64,000 bases of DNA from Gammaproteobacteria bacterium (GCA_965209035.1 OZ242372.1:256001-320000), one strand, 5' to 3'. Shown: positions 2,659-56,712, counted from the first letter of the stretch. Translations and numbers: made by a program. The notes: a model not told the origin generated them from the letters alone.

Positions 2659-2728
2659 GATTTAGAAAGAATTGTTCAGGTTTATAAAAACTGCCTCAAA
2701 CTCTTATCCATTAAGAGTTTGTAAGGAA

Positions 2729-2998
2729 GTATCCGCATCTTCAGTATCCGCATCTTCGGTATCCGCATCTTCGGTATCCGCATCTTCAGTATCCGCATCT
2801 TCGGTATCCGCATCTTCAGTATCCGCATCTTCGGTATCCGCATCTTCGGTATCCGCATCTTCGGTATCCGCATCTTCGGTATCCGCATCTTCGGTATCCG
2901 CATCTTCGGTATCCGCATCTTCGGTATCCGCATCTTCGGTATCCGCATCTTCGGTATCCGCATCTTCGGTATCCGCATCTTCGGTATCCGCATCTTCG
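2729..2998. repeat. 15-bp tandem array GTATCCGCATCTTC(G/A) x18
   Basis: Counted directly: 18 units with no spacers; only the last base varies (A in units 1, 4 and 6). Confidence 0.97.
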
Positions 2999-3133
2999 AA
3001 GCCCGGTGATACAAGATCTCCCGCCCGTCATTGACCGCAGCCCGGTAATTTTTTTGTGGTTACAACTTCCCCGATATCATTTTTGGTATTGGGGCAAAAA
3101 AATATGGGAATGCATAAAAAATACGGCAAGAGA

Positions 3134-4199: not shown

Positions 4200-4331
4200 G
4201 GCATAACCTCAGCAAGGTGCCGGACTCTGAGTTTGGGATGGTGCGCCCTCAGATCAAAGAGCCGGAGGTCCGGCCGGACGGGGTAAAAAGAGATCCGACA
4301 AGCGGCTTAAGGTATGTGAAGATAGATGAAT
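4200..4331 (+). mobile_element. Diverged orphan copy of the IS481 left-end region
   Basis: Ungapped match to the reverse complement of 2525-2658, about 78% identical by manual count. Confidence 0.7.
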
Positions 4332-10539: not shown

Positions 10540-11562
10540 TTAAAATTCCCGCGGCAATCTCAACTTCAAACTGCGACCGGTCTTAAGAGATTCCTTTGCC
10601 ATCTGTGCCAAGTAAATAGCATTCACCCCGTCTATGGAGCGAAGTTCTTTTAAGAGTTTTTGATCCCCGGCAAGTGCCCGCACAAAACCCGTCAATTCCT
10701 GTTTATAAGATTGGGCGTATCTTTCCATAAAAAAGTGTTTTAGCGGTGCTCTGTGAATCCCGTTTTTGTTCGCCAAAATTAAATGATCCCTTTTTTGATT
10801 TGCGGTCTGCAGCATCCCTTTGGAACCAAAGATCTCTATACGCTGATCGTAACCATAGCAGGCGCGCAGACTGTTATGAATAGAAACCAAACAACCGCTT
10901 GCGGTCTTCATACTAATGAGCGCGCTGTCCGCATCTCCCGTCTCCCCCGCCTCCCCTGTGAGCGCGCCCGTTAGCACAGACGCCATTACGGCCAGACTCT
11001 CCGGCGGATCCGGCATCAAATGCAAAGCCATATCAAAATCGTGAATTGTCATGTCCATGAAAAGACCGCCCCATTGCCGGATATAAGCAAGCGGTGGCGG
11101 AGCCGGATCGCGACTGATAACCCGAATATGCTCCAAGCTGCCGACAGTTCGGATGCTCTCTTTTAGGAGAATATTGTCCCGATCAAACCTTCGATTAAAA
11201 CCGACCATCACCCTTCCGTCGTGCCGCTGGACATAAGAAGTACAATCCAACGCCTCTTGCAAGTTGCCGCACAAAGGCTTTTCACAGAAGACCGCCTTGC
11301 CGGCCCGCACCGCCCGCTTAATCATACCGCTATGTGTCGGCGTTGGCGTGCATAAAATTAAAAGGTCTGTTTTTTTATCCGCCAAAATCTCTTCCAAGTC
11401 ATGCGCCGGCGTGACATCGTATTTTTTGCACATCCGGGCAAGGAGAATCGGATTCGCTTCCGCAAGATAAGTCAGTCGGGCAGTCGGCATCACCGCAAGA
11501 TTTTCAGCGTGCAAGGAACCGATGCGTCCCAGCCCCAAAACCGCACAACCGATCGTCTTCAT
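10540..11562 (-). CDS. iolG: Inositol 2-dehydrogenase, diverged copy
   Basis: GLGRIG, CEKP, GFNRRFD, DMTIHDFD and YGYDQR. Confidence 0.85.
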   Translation of the reverse strand: MKTIGCAVLGLGRIGSLHAENLAVMPTARLTYLAEANPILLARMCKKYDVTPAHDLEEILADKKTDLLILCTPTPTHSGMIKRAVRAGKAVFCEKPLCGNLQEALDCTSYVQRHDGRVMVGFNRRFDRDNILLKESIRTVGSLEHIRVISRDPAPPPLAYIRQWGGLFMDMTIHDFDMALHLMPDPPESLAVMASVLTGALTGEAGETGDADSALISMKTASGCLVSIHNSLRACYGYDQRIEIFGSKGMLQTANQKRDHLILANKNGIHRAPLKHFFMERYAQSYKQELTGFVRALAGDQKLLKELRSIDGVNAIYLAQMAKESLKTGRSLKLRLPREF

Positions 11563-13907: not shown

Positions 13908-14921
13908 TTAAAATTCCTGCGGTAGTCTCAACTTCAAACTGCGACCGGCCTTAAGAGATTCCTTTGCCATCTGTGCCAAGTACATAGCGTTCACCCCGTC
14001 TATGGAACAAAGTTCTTTTAAGAGTTTTTGATCCCCCGCAAGAGCCCGGATAAAACCCGCCAATTCCTCCGTATAAGATTGGGCGTATCTTTCCAGAAAA
14101 AAGTGTTTTAAGGCCGCCCTGTGAATCCCGCTTTTGTTCGCCAAAATCAAATGATCCTTTTTTTGATTTGCGGTCTGCAGCATCCCCTTGGAACCAAAGA
14201 TCTCTATACGCTGATCGTAACCATAGCTGGCGCGCCGACTGTTATGAATAGAGACCAAACAGCCGCTTACGGTCTTCATACTAACGAGCGCGCTGTCCAT
14301 ATCGCCCGCCTCCCCTATGGACGCATCCGTCAGCACAGATGCCATTACGGTCAGTCTCTCCGGCGGATCCGGCATCAAATGCAAAGCCATATCAAAATCG
14401 TGAATTGTCATGTCCATGAAAAGGCCGCCCGATTGCCGGATATAAGCAAGCGGCGGCGGAGCCGGATCGCGGCTAATAATTTGAATATGCTCCAAGCTGC
14501 CAACAGTGCGGCTGCTCTCTTTTAGAAGAATATTATCCGGATCAAACCTGCGGTTAAAACCGACCATCATCTTGCCGCCGTGCCGCCGGACATAAGAAAC
14601 ACAATCCAACGCCTCTTGCAAACTGCCACACAAAGGCTTTTCGCAAAAGACCGCCTTGCCGGCCCGCACCGCTCGCTTAATCATACCGCTATGTGTCGGC
14701 GTCGGCGTGCATAAAACTAAAAGTTCTGTTTTTTCATCCGCCAAAATCTCTTCCAAGTTATGAGCCGGCGCAACATCGTATTTTTTGCAGATCTTGGCAA
14801 GGACACTCGGATTCTCTTCCGCAAGATAAGTCAGTCGGGCAGTCGGCATCACCGCAAGATTTGCAACATGCAAAGAGCCGATGCGACCCAGCCCCAAAAC
14901 CGCACAACCGATCGTCTTCAT
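13908..14921 (-). CDS. iolG: Inositol 2-dehydrogenase, canonical copy
   Basis: GLGRIG, CEKP, SGGLFMDMTIHDFD and NSRRASYGYDQR. Confidence 0.92.
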   Translation of the reverse strand: MKTIGCAVLGLGRIGSLHVANLAVMPTARLTYLAEENPSVLAKICKKYDVAPAHNLEEILADEKTELLVLCTPTPTHSGMIKRAVRAGKAVFCEKPLCGSLQEALDCVSYVRRHGGKMMVGFNRRFDPDNILLKESSRTVGSLEHIQIISRDPAPPPLAYIRQSGGLFMDMTIHDFDMALHLMPDPPERLTVMASVLTDASIGEAGDMDSALVSMKTVSGCLVSIHNSRRASYGYDQRIEIFGSKGMLQTANQKKDHLILANKSGIHRAALKHFFLERYAQSYTEELAGFIRALAGDQKLLKELCSIDGVNAMYLAQMAKESLKAGRSLKLRLPQEF

Positions 14922-15906: not shown

Positions 15907-17766
15907 TTATGTCTGTCTCTGCCGGCTCTTACCGGCAAGATTCTTCTTATAAGCCGCAAGCACCGCCTTGGAATCGGATACTTCCGGCACACCCACTTCC
16001 CACCAACAGCCGCCTTCGGTGGTTGTGAGGTCGGCACTCGTATCCAAAAGAATCATATAAACACCGGCGCACCGAACCGAGCGTTTCAAGGCATCGGGCA
16101 GTTCGTTTAAGTTCTCCAATTTTTCCGCCACAGCCCCAAGACTTTCGGCATGCTTCACAAAATCAATTTCAAGTTTGTTCGCATGCGCCGTATTGGGATC
16201 CTGTAACAGATTATTGAATTTCTCGCCGCCGCATCCCTGCTGCAACCGACTGATACAACCAAACCCCCGGTTATCCAAAACAATCAAGTTAATCTTAAGA
16301 CCCATCGCAACAGCCGTAGCAATTTCCGAATTAAGCATCAGGTAACTGCCGTCCCCGACCACTACAAACACCTCGCGTTCCGGGCAAGCCATCTTCACAC
16401 CCAGACCGGCCGCTATCTCATACCCCATACAAGAATAGCCGTATTCCATATGATAATCCTCGCGACTCCGGTTGCGCCAGTGCCTGTGCAATTCCGCGGG
16501 CAGACTGCCGGCGGCACAAACTACCGTAGAATTCTCATCGGCAAAAGTATTCAGAACCCGCACAACCTGCGCATCGCTCGGCAAACCCTTGCCGTCATAA
16601 CGACAAAATCTGTCGGACACGGCATCCCATTCCAACCGCCTTTTTGTCAATGCCGTTTTGTAATCCGCCGAAGTTTGCCAATTCCCGAGTTCCTCCGTCA
16701 GTGCCTTCAAGCCGACCCGGGCATCCGCCAACAGCGGCAGCGCGGTATGCTTAACAGCATCAAAAGTACAACTATTGAGTTGAATAAGCCGCATCTCCGG
16801 ATTCCCAAACAAACTGCGCGAACCTGTGGTGAAGTCCTGTAGCCTGGTACCGACCGCCAAAATAACATCCGCCTCCCCGGCAAAACGATTGGCAACACCG
16901 GTTCCTGTGACGCCGATTGCCCCGACATCATAAGGATCCGCATGCAACATCACGCCCTTCCCCGCCTGTGTCTGTGCCACCGCCACACCATGCTTGGATG
17001 CAAAAGCGGCAAGATCTTCCTCCGCTTGAGAATAAAGAACCCCGCCGCCGGCAATAATCAGCGGCTTCTTTGCATTCCGCATCGCTGTCAGCGCCGCCGC
17101 CAGTTCTCTCGTATCCGGCGAAAGACGGCGTCCGTAACGGACATTCTCCCGGAAAAAATCCAAAGGATAATCATAAGCAAGTGCTTGCACATCCTGCGGC
17201 AAGCAGATGGTCGCCGGTCCCCGACTTTGCGGATCCAACAAAATACTTAATGCCTGCGGCAAACTCTGCAGCAACTGTTCCGGCCGGGTGATCCTGTCCC
17301 AGAAACGGGAAACCGGTCTGAAACAGTCATTAACGGAAATCGTCGGATCCCAACCGCTCTCGCTTTGTTGCAACACCGGGTCCGGCTGTCGCCCGGCAAA
17401 AATGTCGCCGGGTAAAAAAAGCACCGGCAGTCTGTTCACATAGGCAAGCGCGGCGGCGGTCACCATATTGGTGGCGCCCGGTCCTATGGAACTGGTGCAA
17501 AACATCATCCGGCGGCAACGCCTTGCCTTGGCATATGCAATTGCGGCATGCGCCATACTTTGTTCGTTGTGTCCTCTGTAAAGGGGAAGTTCTTTTCTAA
17601 AAGCAAACAGAGCCTCGCCCAGGGCGGGAACATTACCGTGTCCGAAAATACCAAAGCCGCCGGCAAACAGCCGCTCCGATTCTTTGTGTTCGGAATCTGT
17701 ATATATTCTTTGGGATGCCAGGTAACGCACCAGGGCTTGCGCCGCGGTCAATCGAATTGTTTTCAT
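15907..17766 (-). CDS. iolD: 3D-(3,5/4)-trihydroxycyclohexane-1,2-dione hydrolase (TPP-dependent)
   Basis: IFGHGNV, NEQSMAHAA, SSIGPGATN, EYGYSCMGYE and GDGSYLM. Confidence 0.96.
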   Translation of the reverse strand: MKTIRLTAAQALVRYLASQRIYTDSEHKESERLFAGGFGIFGHGNVPALGEALFAFRKELPLYRGHNEQSMAHAAIAYAKARRCRRMMFCTSSIGPGATNMVTAAALAYVNRLPVLFLPGDIFAGRQPDPVLQQSESGWDPTISVNDCFRPVSRFWDRITRPEQLLQSLPQALSILLDPQSRGPATICLPQDVQALAYDYPLDFFRENVRYGRRLSPDTRELAAALTAMRNAKKPLIIAGGGVLYSQAEEDLAAFASKHGVAVAQTQAGKGVMLHADPYDVGAIGVTGTGVANRFAGEADVILAVGTRLQDFTTGSRSLFGNPEMRLIQLNSCTFDAVKHTALPLLADARVGLKALTEELGNWQTSADYKTALTKRRLEWDAVSDRFCRYDGKGLPSDAQVVRVLNTFADENSTVVCAAGSLPAELHRHWRNRSREDYHMEYGYSCMGYEIAAGLGVKMACPEREVFVVVGDGSYLMLNSEIATAVAMGLKINLIVLDNRGFGCISRLQQGCGGEKFNNLLQDPNTAHANKLEIDFVKHAESLGAVAEKLENLNELPDALKRSVRCAGVYMILLDTSADLTTTEGGCWWEVGVPEVSDSKAVLAAYKKNLAGKSRQRQT

Positions 17767-17777
17767 ATTTTTAGGGA

Positions 17778-17806
17778 ATTATATACAATACTCCCTAAAT
17801 TGCCAA
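17778..17806 (-). promoter_or_regulatory. Outward-facing sigma70-like promoter upstream of iolD
   Basis: TTGGCA (17806-17801), 17 nt spacer, TATAAT (17783-17778), ending 11 nt before the iolD ATG. Confidence 0.6.
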
Positions 17807-18056
17807 TCATCTTTCCTTGCTTTTGTATTCTTTTTATTTAATTCCACATCCGGGATCCGATAAGAAATATTTTTGGAGATAATACGATCATGATTCAATG
17901 CCGCCGTAACGATTTCTTCTAATTTCTTTGCTTCTTTTTTAGGAAGTTTTATAGTGTTTTGAATGGAATCAAACCTATTTCCAACAAAATAACACCTTAT
18001 TTGACGACAATCACACCTTTGAAAGTAATCGGACAATACTCTACATTGTTATTCAT
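17779..18056 (-). pseudogene. Small hypothetical passenger gene, possibly frameshifted
   Basis: ATG frame MNNNVEYCPITFKGVIVVK* overlaps the upstream stop; a second frame continues as the 85-aa track ORF. Confidence 0.35.
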
Positions 18057-18398
18057 CTTTACCGCCATCTAAGCTTGCCCCCGCAACAAAACCAATTGTT
18101 AAACTGATAATATTAAACCCTCCGTAAATGACGATGGTAATAAGTTCAAATAAGCCCGAATCTTTTCCTAACTTGCTATAAGCCACTAAAATAAAACTTC
18201 CAAGCAAAACTAACCCAAACATAAAAACAACAATAACCTATATGCTATAAAAAGTTTTTGTTTGCCTGTCCAAAAAGTGCTGTCACAAAAACAATCGCGA
18301 AGGAAGTTTAGCGCGCCATATTTTACTTTGTTCGTTGAGTTTGGTGACAAAGGGCCTTCATTTGATTTTGTTTGATCTTTTTCTTGCGAATGATTCAT
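18049..18398 (-). pseudogene. Frameshifted two-TM membrane protein downstream of Panacea (candidate toxin)
   Basis: Frame 1 reads MNHSQEK..KLFIAY. A shifted frame reads VIVVFMFGLVLLGSFILVAY..ITIVIYGGFNIISLTIGFVAGASLDGGKDE*. The start overlaps the Panacea stop (TAATG). Confidence 0.6.
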
Positions 18399-18880
18399 TA
18401 CTTTTCTGTGATATATTCGTCTTTTATTTTTTTGTAAGGACCATCAATAGTTAAAGTTTTAGCATACGGACTGCCGATAGAATGGGTAATATTCGTTAGG
18501 CGAGAAGCGGTAAAATCTCCATAGTCATTTAAAACATTTTCCAAATGACTCATCATTTTTTGACCGCCCAAATGCTCTTGTTTTTCTTCATACCCTCTTA
18601 CAGCCCCATCAAATAAGATCGGTTTCAACGAATAATATTTAAAATAATACATAATTTCCAGTATAACCGGTCCGTAATTCCAAGCACTAAAAACATTCGG
18701 GGTGCTGCGAAACGGGTTATCCGAACCTTCATCTCTTAAACAAGCACGATACCAAAGATATAGCAATTTTTGTATTTTTGTTTGATTCATATCAATATTC
18801 CTTTCCTTCGCTCTTACTAATAGAGTATTAATCGCAAGAACAAATTCCTTTGTTAAAAGATTACTTCGTTTAACTTCCAT
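18398..18880 (-). CDS. Panacea/SocA-like (DUF4065) antitoxin-domain protein
   Basis: KIQKLLY, AWNYGPV, YGDFTASRL and THSIGSPY. Confidence 0.88.
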   Translation of the reverse strand: MEVKRSNLLTKEFVLAINTLLVRAKERNIDMNQTKIQKLLYLWYRACLRDEGSDNPFRSTPNVFSAWNYGPVILEIMYYFKYYSLKPILFDGAVRGYEEKQEHLGGQKMMSHLENVLNDYGDFTASRLTNITHSIGSPYAKTLTIDGPYKKIKDEYITEK

Positions 18881-18890
18881 ATGACATATC

Positions 18891-19058
18891 CTATTTCACT
18901 AAATCACAATACTTAATCCGCTTGCCGCGAAACGCTACACAAAAGGACTTCAATCTATCTACGGTGTCAATCGCACAGTTGCCCTCATCAGGCACCATCT
19001 TCATAAATTGAAAAACACTAATGGCTTTCGCTATTTGTTTTTCTTCTCTTATCTTCAT
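18891..19058 (-). pseudogene. IS1595-family transposase with a large internal deletion
   Basis: N-terminal-like ISVFQFMKMVPDE is joined directly to C-terminal-like EGNCAIDTVDRL..GKRIKYCDLV; located just inside the IR. Confidence 0.7.
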
Positions 19059-19204
19059 AGTGGTATAAATATTATTATACGATAAAGTATTCACTTTTTA
19101 AAGGTTGAGGAGTATTGTATATAATTCCCTAAATTTAATCTCACTTTGCGGTTGCCTCGCTGCCTCGATGCCGCGATACCACACCGCAGATTCGCATTCG
19201 CATC

Positions 19205-21214
19205 TCATCGGCGACGGCGAGCGGCATGCTCGGCGGGTCGCGCCCCTGTCCAAATGTCTGTCAAGCGCAAGAAATTTTCCGATATCACGCGCACCGTCTC
19301 ATCCGCATCCGTTTCTTTTTGAAACCAAGAAAGAATCGGCGCGCCAAAAATACTTCTGCCAACGGCAAAACCCCGGCATTCGGGTTGCCGGGCGGCAATT
19401 TCTATGTCTTTTTGCAGATCTTCTATCGGTTTGTCTTTCCCGAGTAACAGCACACCGCAACAATGCGGGTCCCCGCGATTAATCACGGAACGGACATCAT
19501 CCCAATGCCCCGCAGATAAGCCGGGCAACTTCCACCAATCGGGGAAGATATCTCTTTTGTAAACTTCCTCCATTCCGCGCAACACTTCTTCGCCTTCTTC
19601 CCGAGCCGCCAAAGGATCCCGCGGCAGAATTTCCAATAACAATCTGTGCCGGGAATGCTCGCAGGCACGATAAAGTTGCCAAACTCTTTTCAATTGCAGT
19701 GCGCGCAGATGCGCCTCCTCGTCGCTCTTATAAAAAAACAAACACTTCACCAAATGCGATGCCGGAAAACTTTCAACCACATGTGCGATCGGCTCGGAAA
19801 AATCAAACTCCAAAGGATAGGATTTCGGCTTCTCTACCGGTCTGGCAATCCAAATCGGCTCTCCGGCAAGCCCAATATCCCCGCCAAGCCCGGTAGCCTG
19901 TCGCAACACATCTTCGCCGTATCTGCCGTCACAGATTAAGCCGGGTTTTAAGGATTTCTCTGTCGTTATGTTCTTCTTTGCCATTACAAACGCCTGCCAA
20001 ATCAACTTCTTGCCTTCCGCGATAGCGGCATCCGCGGGCGACAAACCCGCCTTAGCCGCCATCTCCTCAAATTGCAAACGATGGTCAAACGCCAGAATAC
20101 AGAAATCGCCGGCGCCGGCATCTCCCGCACCCGGTCTGTGCTGTCCCGTGGTTGCGTTATGCAAACGCCGAAAAGCCGGCGCGTGATCCGGAATGGCGGG
20201 CAATTGATCGCGCCGGGACATAAAATAATCCAGTTCCGGCACAGACGGAGATTCGGGGGAACATCCGTGCCTGCTCACCACAAGGGCACCCGAAGCATTG
20301 CCTTTGGTGGCACAGGTTTCCCAATCTTCGCCGCGCAAATAAGCGGACAAAAAGCCGCTCATAAACGCATCCCCCGCCCCGACCGTGTTCACAATCCCGA
20401 CCTTAAAAGACCGCCCGTTCGGCGAGAATTTTGCGGGAACCTCGCCGTCATCAATCACACAGCATCCCAATGCCCCCATCTTAAAAACAAGCGTAGCATC
20501 GGTCAGGGCGCGCACATTTTTCAGGGAAGCATAAGGATCTTCGCTGCCGCCCGCTATGTTGAATTCCTCATCCGTGCCGACTATCAGATCGCACATAGGA
20601 AGAATTTTTTGAATATTTTGAGTCACCTCCCGGTTTGCCACAAAGCGATTCTCCCCCTCACCCAAGTCCGTCAACCCCCAAAGGACGGGACGATAATCAA
20701 TATCAAAAATGATCCGGGTGCCGGCCGCGCGCGCCGCCTCTGCCGCCTTAAACAAAGCCTGTGCCGTTTCGGGTGCGGAAAGATGCACCCCGCTCAAAAG
20801 AATGGCCTTACTCTTGCCAATTGCCTCAACGGGGATATCCTCCCGACATAAGCCCATGTCCGCGCAATCCTTGCGATAATACAACAGCGGAAAGGTTTGA
20901 GAATCGCGAATGCTCAGCAGAACAAGCGTGGTTAAGCGTTTGTCATCGCGGCGAATGAACCGCGTATCCACTCCTTCACAGGCAAAGGTCTTAATCAGAT
21001 ACTCGCCCATCTGCTCCTTACCGACGCGCGAAACCATCGCCACTCGCAGTCCCAGCCGGGAGGTCCCTATGGCGATATTGGCGGGACAACCGCCGACATA
21101 CTTATTGAAAGAAAGGGCATCCTCCAGACCGCCTCCCAGTTGGTTTGAGTACAGATCCACGCCGCATCTGCCGATGCTAATCAGATCATAGTCCGTTTCC
21201 GGTGTTCGCTTCAT
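19205..21214 (-). CDS. iolC: 5-dehydro-2-deoxygluconokinase with DUF2090 domain
   Basis: IGRCGVDLY, KYVGGCPANIA, DIDYRPVLW, GAGDAF, LAFDHR and PDWWKL. Confidence 0.95.
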   Translation of the reverse strand: MKRTPETDYDLISIGRCGVDLYSNQLGGGLEDALSFNKYVGGCPANIAIGTSRLGLRVAMVSRVGKEQMGEYLIKTFACEGVDTRFIRRDDKRLTTLVLLSIRDSQTFPLLYYRKDCADMGLCREDIPVEAIGKSKAILLSGVHLSAPETAQALFKAAEAARAAGTRIIFDIDYRPVLWGLTDLGEGENRFVANREVTQNIQKILPMCDLIVGTDEEFNIAGGSEDPYASLKNVRALTDATLVFKMGALGCCVIDDGEVPAKFSPNGRSFKVGIVNTVGAGDAFMSGFLSAYLRGEDWETCATKGNASGALVVSRHGCSPESPSVPELDYFMSRRDQLPAIPDHAPAFRRLHNATTGQHRPGAGDAGAGDFCILAFDHRLQFEEMAAKAGLSPADAAIAEGKKLIWQAFVMAKKNITTEKSLKPGLICDGRYGEDVLRQATGLGGDIGLAGEPIWIARPVEKPKSYPLEFDFSEPIAHVVESFPASHLVKCLFFYKSDEEAHLRALQLKRVWQLYRACEHSRHRLLLEILPRDPLAAREEGEEVLRGMEEVYKRDIFPDWWKLPGLSAGHWDDVRSVINRGDPHCCGVLLLGKDKPIEDLQKDIEIAARQPECRGFAVGRSIFGAPILSWFQKETDADETVRVISENFLRLTDIWTGARPAEHAARRRR

Positions 21215-27435: not shown

Positions 27436-27502
27436 CTCGGCTGCTTGATCTGAGGACGCACAATGCCAAACTCAGAGTCCGGAGCCTTTATGAGATCATG
27501 CA
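27436..27502 (-). mobile_element. Orphan IS481 left end, with a second IR-like motif ending at 27550
   Basis: Close match to 2591-2658, ending exactly at ..GAGATCATGCA. Confidence 0.8.
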
Positions 27503-27724: not shown

Positions 27725-28279
27725 ATGAAAAATCTAAATGTAACCACGCAAGATATGGAGTCAGACACGGGTAACCAAATGTTCCATGCTTTACGGGATG
27801 CCGGTATTGCGGACAAGCACGCCAAGCGTGTTGCCTCTGAGGCGGAAAAAACTAATACTTATCTCAAATCATTGGGCAAATCTGTGGAGTCTCTGCAAGG
27901 CGATGTCTCTACTCTTAAAGGTGATGTCATTACTCTTAAAGGTGATGTCACTACTCTTAAAAATGATGTCATTACTCTTAAAGGTGATGTCTCTACTCTT
28001 AAAAGTGATGTCGTTATCATTAAAAAAGATATTGACATACTCAAAGAAGATAGCATTGCTATTAAAGGTGATGTCGCTGTCTTAAAAAATGATGGCACTG
28101 CTTTTAAAAATGATATGATCACGATTAAAAGTGATATCGCCACTATAAAAGAGGCTATCATTTCTTTACAAGCAAGCAACCGTCTAATGGCGATATTCAC
28201 CACAGGCACTTTTGGTATTATCGCAACAGCGGCACTGACCGGCATGTTCGGTTTTTTGTTCTATCTGCTCGGCATTTAA
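27725..28279 (+). CDS. CCDC90/DUF1640-like membrane-anchored coiled-coil protein with heptad repeats
   Basis: Head ALRDAGIADKHAKRVA, about 12 heptads of the LKGDVxT type (21-bp DNA repeat), C-terminal TM helix. Confidence 0.75.
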   Translation: MKNLNVTTQDMESDTGNQMFHALRDAGIADKHAKRVASEAEKTNTYLKSLGKSVESLQGDVSTLKGDVITLKGDVTTLKNDVITLKGDVSTLKSDVVIIKKDIDILKEDSIAIKGDVAVLKNDGTAFKNDMITIKSDIATIKEAIISLQASNRLMAIFTTGTFGIIATAALTGMFGFLFYLLGI

Positions 28280-55025: not shown

Positions 55026-55158
55026 ACATGAGAAAGATTATAAGGCATTCATTTTTTTAATGAGGAGAGATGTCTTACCCAAAGAATATTTTCCGGTCGC
55101 ATTCGGCTTAATGCTTCCCGATGCTTCCCGTGCCGGTGTTCAAACCGGAATACTCCCC

Positions 55159-55783
55159 TTAATTTTCTAATGTGTCTCTTTCTTTCAAATAATTAATGGC
55201 ATTCATGAGATAGTTCTTGCCATTCTTAAATCTGCCCAAACCCGTATTACAACTATCACAAATAAAATCTCTGATGTTGCCTGTGTGATGATCGTGGTCC
55301 GCAACTACCTTGGTCGTAATCCCAACAATGGAACGCTTTTGACAAATGGGGCACTTAAAGTAATCTCCTTTTTGAGGGCGGCTTTTTTCCATACGCTTTG
55401 CCTGTATGCTCTTAGGGGATCTCTTGTCTATATCGGTTCGACAACTAATACAACCGGGACGACGTATGGAGCCATGTTTATTTGTTTGGTTTATTTGTTT
55501 GGTTAAGGCTAAACTTGATTGTCGGTCTTAGCCTATGACAAATGTTACAAATCTTTTGTTGATGTCTGTCGCCTGTTTTGTGCACATCCAAATCGGTGAT
55601 TTCATTCTTCGCGACAGTCCAAGTTTCGTTTCTGCCAATTAACCAAACAATCGCCATCCCGCCCTCAATCTTTTTTAGTAACCCCACCGAGTTGGCGGGA
55701 AAGTGTGTGCTGTGTTTTGAAGGCGTACCATCTTCATGTAAATGACCCTTCCCCTTGAGACAAACAACCCATTTAGACAGCAT
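55159..55783 (-). pseudogene. Hpy99I-family type II restriction endonuclease, frameshifted by a 13-bp tandem duplication
   Basis: KICNICH, RPGCISCR, CPICQKRSIVG and DHDH..ICDSCNTGLGRFK; GTTTATTTGTTTG x2 at 55476-55501. Confidence 0.88.
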
Positions 55784-56679
55784 CTTTTATTAAGTCCAAT
55801 CGTTTTTTTGCTATATCAATATACTCATGTGAAACATCCACACCTATATACTTGCGCCGATTAATGGCCGCCATTTTACAGGTCGTTCCCGAGCCACACA
55901 TAGGATCGAATACCAGGTCGCCATCATTTGTCCAAGATAATATATGCTCTTCGGCCAGTTTTTCGGGAAATACGGCGGGGTGATTAAATGCGATCTTGTC
56001 CGATCTTGTCCGATATTGCCCCGCCCATACCAACCGCATAGGACCATATATTTGTTCTAGTTTTTTCTTTTTTTAATTCTCTTAGAATTTTTTTATTCAC
56101 CCCGTCGGACTTTTTGTTGTGAACAACCATTTCAAGCCCGTGCCTGACTGTTTTTTCTTTTAGCGGGTTAAATATTTTTGGTTTTCCTTTGCTCAAAACA
56201 AACATAAACTCGTAACAATTTGTATAAGCATTACTGCGCATAAACGGAGTATTCTTCTTTTGGTAAATCATCACATCATGTGCGCTAAATCCGATATCTC
56301 GAAAGTAAATTCCTTGCTCAAAACTGGTGAGAGTTCGCCCTCCGTTAATTCTATCGCCGACAACCCAAACGACAATACCTCCCTTTTTGGTAACTCTGTA
56401 TAGTTCCCGGGCAATCAATCTAAAATCAAAATCGTAACCCTTGTAATCTCGTAAATTGTCATAAGGCGGAGAAGTAATTGTCAGATCCACACTATTTTCT
56501 GCCATATCTCGCATAAACTCAACACAATCACTAACATGAAGTCCGCACTTTCGATCATTTGTGATTCGGTTGGATGACGAAACGGCGGAGCTTGCGGAAG
56601 TTGTTTCCATGTCCGGGGCATCCGGCGCGAATAAATCCGAACTGCTCATTTCACCGCGATCACACTTCTTACATTCCAA
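55773..56679 (-). pseudogene. Beta-class N4-cytosine/N6-adenine DNA methyltransferase, frameshifted by a 10-bp tandem duplication
   Basis: DLTITSPPY, HPAVFPEKL and DPMCGSGTT; CGATCTTGTC x2 at 55991-56010. Confidence 0.9.
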
Positions 56680-56712
56680 AAAGATTGCCCAAAACGGATG
56701 CCCGCGCCTTGC

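Follow-up and report, generated by a model that had tools for sequence, protein, structure and literature searches.

A probable decaying IS1595-family insertion cassette with a Panacea antitoxin gene in an iol operon

What kind of DNA separates iolC from iolD in this gammaproteobacterial iol operon, how did it come there, and is it still at work? The question is raised by a 64-kb stretch (64,000 nucleotides, GCA_965209035.1 OZ242372.1:256001-320000, hereafter the window) in which a segment with a GC content of 34.0%, against 49.0% for the whole window, lies between these two genes. A sequence-only reading had described it as a non-autonomous IS1595-like cassette carrying a Panacea toxin-antitoxin (TA)-like module, mobilisable in trans and now being domesticated. 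All genes of the insert are on the minus strand, as is the host operon, in the order 55-aa ORF, 160-aa ORF and two broken ORFs, the successive junctions being 10 nt, a 1-nt overlap and an 8-nt overlap. The insert and its neighbours are:

15907..17766, minus strand: iolD of the host, intact, 619 aa (TIGR04377 above cut-off)
17774..19129, minus strand: whole element, 1,356 bp, a probable internally deleted IS1595-family transporter IS (mobile insertion cassette)
19205..21214, minus strand: iolC of the host, a kinase-DUF2090 fusion, intact, 669 aa (NF047869/TIGR04382 above cut-off)

Both neighbours scored above the NCBIfam cut-offs, in agreement with the position first given for the insert, between iolC and iolD. 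In related loci iolC was found directly upstream of iolD (6/6, gaps of -4 to 198 nt); these loci are distant, with IolD 55-58% identical, and provide evidence on gene order rather than an empty allele. When the element and one flank copy are removed from the window, the iolC-iolD gap is 74 nt. These data support the reading of the segment as an insertion into an otherwise contiguous iolC-iolD junction. Elsewhere in the window, two inositol-dehydrogenase-like genes that are ~90% identical were also observed (10540-11562 and 13908-14921), 3.4 kb apart.

The limits of the insert depend on the length assigned to its inverted repeats (IRs), which had been reported as perfect over 25 bp. The complementary arms at 17770-17794 and 19109-19133 do match at 100% over 25 nt, but the true IR is 21 bp and the additional 4 bp belong to the flank, since homologous elements end at GGG and their 8-bp duplications lie directly outside it. 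The element termini are accordingly the GGG at 17774 and 19129, the point at which the homologous elements stop.

17766..17773, no strand: 8-bp flank copy TATTTTTA, 6/8 identical to TAAATTTA
17774..17794, plus strand: IRR, 21 bp, identical to IRL (complementary arms, window-wide IR search)
19109..19129, minus strand: IRL (transposase side), 21 bp, GGGAATTATATACAATACTCC, with 24/27 nt identical to the IRL of the complete element L008
19130..19137, no strand: 8-bp flank copy TAAATTTA, probable target-site duplication, at the same offset as the duplication of L010

The 21-nt IR core has exactly two copies in the 64-kb window, and none of 100 shuffles matched. With IRs of this length the flanks match at 6/8, as in a degenerate 8-bp duplication, whereas beside a 25-bp IR they would match at just 4/8 and four bases would be counted twice. 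A match of 6/8 or better is reached by 33 of 1,348 element 8-mers, i.e. ~2.4% by chance, and the last minus-strand base of TATTTTTA is the A of the iolD ATG. As the flank copies differ at 2/8 positions and the IRs at 0/21 (Fisher p 0.07), it is possible that the flanks are something other than one duplication that has aged. A direct repeat of 10 nt, TCCCTAAATT, is present at 17792-17801 and 19126-19135 of the window and turns the iolD-side end into a quasi-palindrome, the stem of which would be perfect over 10 bp had the left flank once been identical to the right one; there are hints that the two flank differences arose beside the iolD start codon. Rfam gave no match at 17000-20000, and blastn of the element against plasmids returned short chance matches only.

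The affiliation of these ends was sought in other genomes. GTDB was scanned once with the first 18 nt of the IR and gave 29 loci, corresponding to 28 distinct places (L008 and L012 overlap), the source genome of the window not being among them. IS1595 transposase sequence was present at no more than 6 kb from the IR in 4/28 places, with E<=1.4e-5 (L008, L010, L022, L009), and a fifth place, L017, showed a weak match to the transposase C-terminal tail. Eighteen of the 28 matches, which fall within long open frames or other genes, probably arose by chance, and three (L005, L013, L023) are solo intergenic IR matches. Two of the places hold complete elements: L008, in a Dehalococcoidia record, has 2,346 bp and no flank duplication; the other is

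L010:3196-6018, Nitrospirales record: complete IS1595 element, 2,823 bp, with a perfect 8-bp (8/8) duplication

Both encode NF033547/PF12762/PF12760 transposases followed by passengers, which are membrane or no-match genes in L008, and in L010 a type II methyltransferase together with a convergent ORF that weakly matches a restriction enzyme (nuclease). The transposase begins 76 nt inside IRL in L008 and 105 nt in L010, to be compared with 71 nt for the first ORF of the window element, whose IRs share 18-19 nt with the ends of the complete elements. Among six plasmid IS1595 loci examined, two have IR pairs with GG-starting ends and 8-bp duplications (L050 8/8, L049 7/8). Taken together, an IR common to elements encoding an IS1595 DDE transposase, and transposase-derived sequence just inside IRL, confirm the IS1595 origin. 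The element presumably belongs to the ISNwi1 group, for which we assume the end motif GGnnatTAT. According to the accessible portions of two papers, IS1595 elements produce AT-rich 8-bp target duplications (PMC5704250; PMC12561309, both in part; this mark is kept below for sources cited from the accessible portion of their text). Short MITE-like units with this IR family were also observed at L014:5845-6018, where the unit has 174 bp, and at L020:5857-6211, where four IR-like sites occur within 355 bp.

The transposase-derived sequence and a putative promoter lie on the iolC side of the insert:

18891..19058, minus strand: 55-aa ORF, in-frame fusion of IS1595 transposase N- and C-terminus (transposase profile)
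19074..19102, minus strand: inward sigma70-like promoter match TTTAAA-17-TATAAT, 10/12 (consensus match only), preceding the unit transposase remnant-panA-gene 3-gene 4

The profile was built from 120 homologues of the L008 transposase together with the L008 and L010 proteins (122 sequences, profile length 311), and it was solely through this profile of transposases, themselves found through the IR, that the ORF was recognised. Residues 7-27 of the ORF correspond to profile positions 8-28 and residues 29-54 to positions 285-310, so that both profile ends are matched in the alignment to IS1595 transposases. Among 1,752 six-frame segments of the window the ORF ranked first, with 10.5 bits against 3.2 for the next, and its score of 11.1 bits exceeded those of all 1,000 shuffles, the highest of which was 4.2; the C-terminal match alone gives 9.8 bits and the N-terminal one alone is weak (0.7 bits). 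The fusion of transposase termini first proposed is therefore upheld, and the join, previously placed at PDE/EGN, is only approximately there and falls at about residues 26-29 (G-N-C-A). Profile positions 29-284 are absent, i.e. ~257 codons have gone in frame with the zinc ribbon, the HTH and the DDE core, and the element contains no PF12762 or NF033547 match. This internal deletion bears out the description as a non-autonomous cassette, since an element whose transposase core is deleted cannot move by itself. Direct searches of Pfam, NCBIfam, PHROGs and plasmids (tblastn) with the ORF gave nothing useful, and no longer protein matched it (5 candidates; weak evidence), though PanA of the source genome is in that database.

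Passenger genes thus lie between IS ends with no functional transposase, and the insert is best read as a mobile insertion cassette (MIC). Its passengers are:

18398..18880, minus strand: panA, intact 160-aa gene of the Panacea/SocA/DUF4065 antitoxin family (PF13274)
18049..18398, minus strand: gene 3, ~116 aa, candidate membrane PanT toxin, with one frame change between ~18240 and 18210
17779..18056, minus strand: gene 4, ~92 aa, with one frame change near 18000 and its stop codon inside IRR

The Panacea gene is indeed intact, with a complete frame and 34.2 bits for PF13274 (cut-off 25.7), and a PHROG match at E 2e-18. The protein shares 24-32% identity with homologues from phages and plasmids, among them the validated PanA of phage phiE52237, and keeps 11 of the 15 columns that are invariant in six homologues, W..GPV included, with drift at three conserved positions. 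When homologues of the Panacea protein were searched for, the window's own protein was the sole one obtained (1/10 candidates).

In gene 3 a polar N-terminus is followed by two predicted TM helices, and the start of the gene overlaps the panA stop by 1 nt (TAATG), within the distance of at most 100 nt used to define same-operon partners (PMC8832971, in part). Validated membrane PanTs have the same polar-N plus TM layout (PMC8832971, in part), and for one of them PanA was modelled binding the unstructured N-terminus and the pre-TM helix (PMC10440598, in part). Across eight homologous loci, the downstream gene overlapping or abutting panA shows this polar-N/TM-C layout in four. At the sequence level, the best pairwise score of gene 3 was 44, with the L030 protein, a value reached by 2/500 global and 14/500 block shuffles; given composition and 16 comparisons, its similarity to the four downstream proteins of the same layout is not significant. 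Searches of families (Pfam), Atlas, PHROGs, phages and plasmids found no significant homologue, apart from one weak plasmid match with no panA nearby, and family-building from the L030 protein gave no relatives. We propose gene 3 as a candidate for a former membrane PanT toxin. Of the TA module first reported, PanA is therefore present, and the toxin is recognised by its architecture only and, its reading frame not being intact, would at best be half of a former pair.

The 73 stop-free codons of gene 4 (P ~0.002 per frame) suggest that it is probably a real coding remnant. It had no match in 1.84 billion representatives, Atlas, plasmids, PDB sequences, Pfam or PADLOC, and its single-sequence fold has a pLDDT of 53. 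A resemblance to YbaB/EbfC was considered and dropped, Pfam giving it no support.

The lack of homologues for genes 3 and 4 in these searches would also be expected if gene 3 were no toxin at all and panA had been captured together with two unrelated small genes as neutral passengers. Such a capture is in line with published counts, since 8 of 25 tested PanTs were non-toxic in E. coli and about half of PanA genes are outside conserved two-gene loci (PMC8832971, in part). Set against it are the TAATG coupling of the translation of gene 3 to panA, the recurrence of the polar-N/TM-C layout beside panA, and the antitoxin-first order, which is that of 943 of 1,268 predicted pairs (PMC8832971, in part). 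We consider a neutral capture unlikely, without being negligible, and retain the former TA pair as the better reading.

Downstream of panA two broken cargo genes had been noted, and each was indeed found to carry one frame change. Both changes coincide with short A/T runs or lie close to them, a context in which assembly errors arise, and a single-base difference at such a run would explain each break; if so, the cassette would hold an intact, working PanAT pair and a third gene. No frameshift was detected in 23 host genes (33,666 bp with 202 homopolymer runs of at least 5), to be compared with two in 620 bp here, a comparison biased by the fact that these host genes were picked as full-length family matches. 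Furthermore, in another low-GC island of the window a gene is interrupted by the tandem duplication of 10 bp, a kind of change that homopolymer errors do not produce. The frameshifts of genes 3 and 4 are thus probably genuine, and assembly error appears to us a very unlikely explanation.

The position of the element directly before iolD raises the question of how this gene is now expressed. Two features are relevant:

17778..17806, minus strand: outward sigma70-like promoter match TTGGCA-17-TATAAT, 11/12, toward iolD (consensus match only)
19139..19147, minus strand: probable original iolD Shine-Dalgarno, now stranded upstream of the element (anti-SD pairing)

In the reconstructed empty site, an SD-like pairing of -4.9 kcal/mol occurs 8 nt before the iolD ATG, and no SD-like pairing was found in the 20 nt that are now upstream of this codon; the insertion probably separated iolD from its ribosome-binding site. 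The outward promoter match has its -10 within the IR and ends 12 nt before the iolD ATG, so that a near-leaderless iolD transcript would be produced from it. A circular intermediate is reported for MTnSag1 (PMC5704250, in part). The idea of the outward match as a family-wide circle-junction promoter was rejected, as a -35 of at least 4/6 is absent from all 13 ends taken from other loci.

The co-option of the outward promoter for iolD is at most suggested by these data, and belongs to a broader reading in which the cassette has been domesticated, either by the IRR promoter driving iolD-iolE-iolG independently or by the orphan PanA being kept as an anti-addiction or sensor protein. In agreement with domestication, the 11/12 match ranks first in the interval 17.6-27.1 kb, of the 15 element ends examined the IRR end alone has a correctly spaced -35 of 5/6, iolD and iolE are intact even though the native SD is stranded, and PanA is intact as well. 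The -10, however, belongs to the family IR, TATAAT being present in 13/15 element ends, and AT-rich DNA yields many such matches (11 sigma70-like matches found against 5.7+/-2.9 in shuffles); a hairpin spanning the iolD leader does not exceed shuffles in stability (z -0.5). As for PanA, it has drifted at the three conserved positions mentioned above, and by length two breaks sparing both panA and the 55-aa ORF are expected in ~1/4 of cases (hand estimate). A module of this kind can decay viably only if the toxin is lost first, so that an intact panA can be accounted for without any selection for another function. Domestication is for these reasons judged improbable.

A further possibility is that the cassette is still actively mobile and exists in several copies, a cognate IS1595 transposase encoded at another place in the genome acting on it in trans. 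Its two perfect IRs, with the 18-19 nt common to the ends of complete elements, and the short MITE-like derivatives of the same IR in L014 and L020 would fit this situation, and a cognate transposase can activate MICs (PMC3129680, in part). Nevertheless, neither an IS1595 transposase nor a further IR (at most 3 mismatches, or a relaxed pattern) was found in the 64-kb window, the flank copies now differ, the cargo is broken, and the absence of a longer protein matching the 55-aa ORF points, weakly, in the same direction. Ongoing mobility seems to us as improbable as domestication.

The window also contains other repeated or low-GC sequences, which are recorded here for themselves. At 55030-56680 a low-GC island lies beside tRNA-Pro and carries a gene for an N6/N4 DNA methyltransferase, the one that is disrupted by the 10-bp tandem duplication; this gene (55984-56679) was considered as part of a second copy of the element and rejected, there being no IR nearby. 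The segment 1312-5204 comprises an IS481-like transposase, two duplicated ORFs containing 33-bp repeats and an array of 15-bp tandem units (2669-3073), a 64-131-bp repeat occurs at ~2527-2657, 4201-4331 and 27438-27502, and a coiled-coil protein of 21-bp repeats with a hydrophobic C-terminus is encoded at 27725-28279.

Taken together, our data argue with good probability for a decaying, internally deleted IS1595 transporter IS (MIC) with a decayed TA module. In the history that we propose, an ancestral element of ~2.1 kb with the layout IRL-tnp-panA-panT-orf4-IRR would have been inserted by an IS1595 DDE transposase into an AT-rich 8-mer between the iolD ribosome-binding site and the ATG, with duplication of this target 8-mer, and the in-frame deletion of ~257 codons of the transposase core could have preceded or followed the insertion. 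The passengers were most likely a former type II PanAT addiction or defence module, in which PanA would bind a small inner-membrane toxin; the toxin gene and gene 4 would later have been frameshifted, leaving the antitoxin without a partner. Read-through or the outward promoter at IRR could explain the survival of iolD-iolE. The element is now most likely a passive relic, whose movement would depend on a cognate transposase being present at some other place in the cell.

The other IR places give this relic a wider context. Apart from L010, whose passengers are described above, L009:6001-8870 shows the IR adjoining a PDC-S46 ATPase with a transposase tail; L022:3570-6018 contains the IR, a transposase without both its ends, an HTH gene and then a broken HipA gene, no right end being found; and L017:630-2365, in a Treponema record, has a small ORF ending in the IS1595 transposase C-terminal tail, a HipA-like gene and the same IR. 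L022, L017 and L009 have one clear element end each. The small ORF of L017, which we take to resemble DUF433, and its neighbour lead us to read this locus as another TA-carrying derivative in decay. A TA or defence-type gene is thus just downstream of the transposase gene in 4/5 transposase-bearing IR places (L010, L009, L022, L017). At L005:6001-12018, an MzaC/D/E defence cluster lies beside the IR, with no transposase within 6 kb. Two plasmid loci can be mentioned separately: L048:3477-5781, with an IS1595 transposase followed by a PIN-domain pair, and L050:3420-5946, where an IS1595 transposase and a Cas2-like small gene are enclosed by IRs with an 8-bp duplication.

The cargo seen so far, i.e. 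PanAT (window), a type II methyltransferase with a candidate nuclease (L010), PDC-S46 (L009), HipA-like (L017, L022) and Mza (L005), leads to a tentative and more speculative hypothesis: IS1595 elements with GGGAATTATA ends could be a cross-phylum shuttle specialised for small TA or defence modules, with a slot just downstream of the transposase gene that could be one engine of Panacea partner swapping, and with an outward -10 in the IR that would let insertions into operons be tolerated and sometimes rewire host genes. If true, iolD would be a possible case of such rewiring. The cause of partner swapping was left open in the Panacea study (PMC8832971, in part), and the IS1595-panA link, which was filtered there as spurious, here becomes a bounded element with ends, a probable target duplication and passengers, so that transposon-driven exchange of PanAT partners becomes testable on defined units. 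Reading the content between IS1595 ends would moreover be a cheap route to defence genes. As a single decayed relic in one genome, the window element is of modest importance by itself, and serves as an example of how such elements may ferry TA genes between bacteria.

Transporter ISs and MICs are established categories (PMC3129680, in part), and the window element can be compared with both. It resembles the transporter ISs MTnSag1/tISSag10 and tISCpe8 by its terminal IRs of 21-25 bp, its probable AT-rich 8-bp duplication and a transposase followed by passengers (PMC5704250, PMC12561309, in part), and differs from them by the missing transposase core, by a Panacea passenger in place of a resistance gene and by a mobility that is putative. 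Like MICs, it has passengers between IS ends and no working transposase (PMC3129680, in part), and a Neisseria RM unit has been described with a 26-bp IR, an 8-bp duplication and an inactivated transposase-like gene (PMC2853133, in part). Unlike these, its IS1595 ends could be matched to autonomous relatives, its cargo is of the TA type, and its transposase remnant is in frame and two-ended.

Concerning the cargo, the closest layouts are those of the PanAT membrane-toxin clusters T3 and T12/D11 (Kurata 2022, Ernits 2023), in which a single-domain PanA comes first, followed by a small protein with a polar or charged N-terminus and a C-terminal TM; gene 3, in contrast, is frameshifted, and the likeness is one of layout, not of sequence. 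Of 25 predicted PanAT pairs, nine were validated in E. coli, and transposases near PanATs were noted and proposed, speculatively, to drive partner swapping (PMC8832971, in part). In Dataset S1 of the same study, as far as this source was accessible, six genomes have an IS1595 transposase gene -8 to 99 nt upstream of panA; they represent three phyla (three Alphaproteobacteria, one Acidobacterium, two Bacteroidetes), and in three of the six a predicted panT of cluster T1 or T5 follows. These six loci, of which WP_027380521-3, WP_109485033-5 and WP_110312091-3 are examples, were flagged there as false positives (spurious toxins or accessory genes). The window element shares with these loci (cluster pT35) the gene order and the short gap between transposase gene and panA (10 nt in the window), whereas their transposases are full-length and the dataset rows give no element boundaries (PMC8832971, in part).

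Each part of the window element is therefore known, and the combination was not found in print: in the full-text literature outside subscription papers, no paper naming both Panacea and IS1595 was retrieved. Finally, TA pairs are reportedly found in Tn3-family transposons, in work attributed to Lima-Mendez (2020). The window element shares with these a TA module placed on a transposable element, and differs from them by another transposase family, a much smaller size and the absence of a resolvase.
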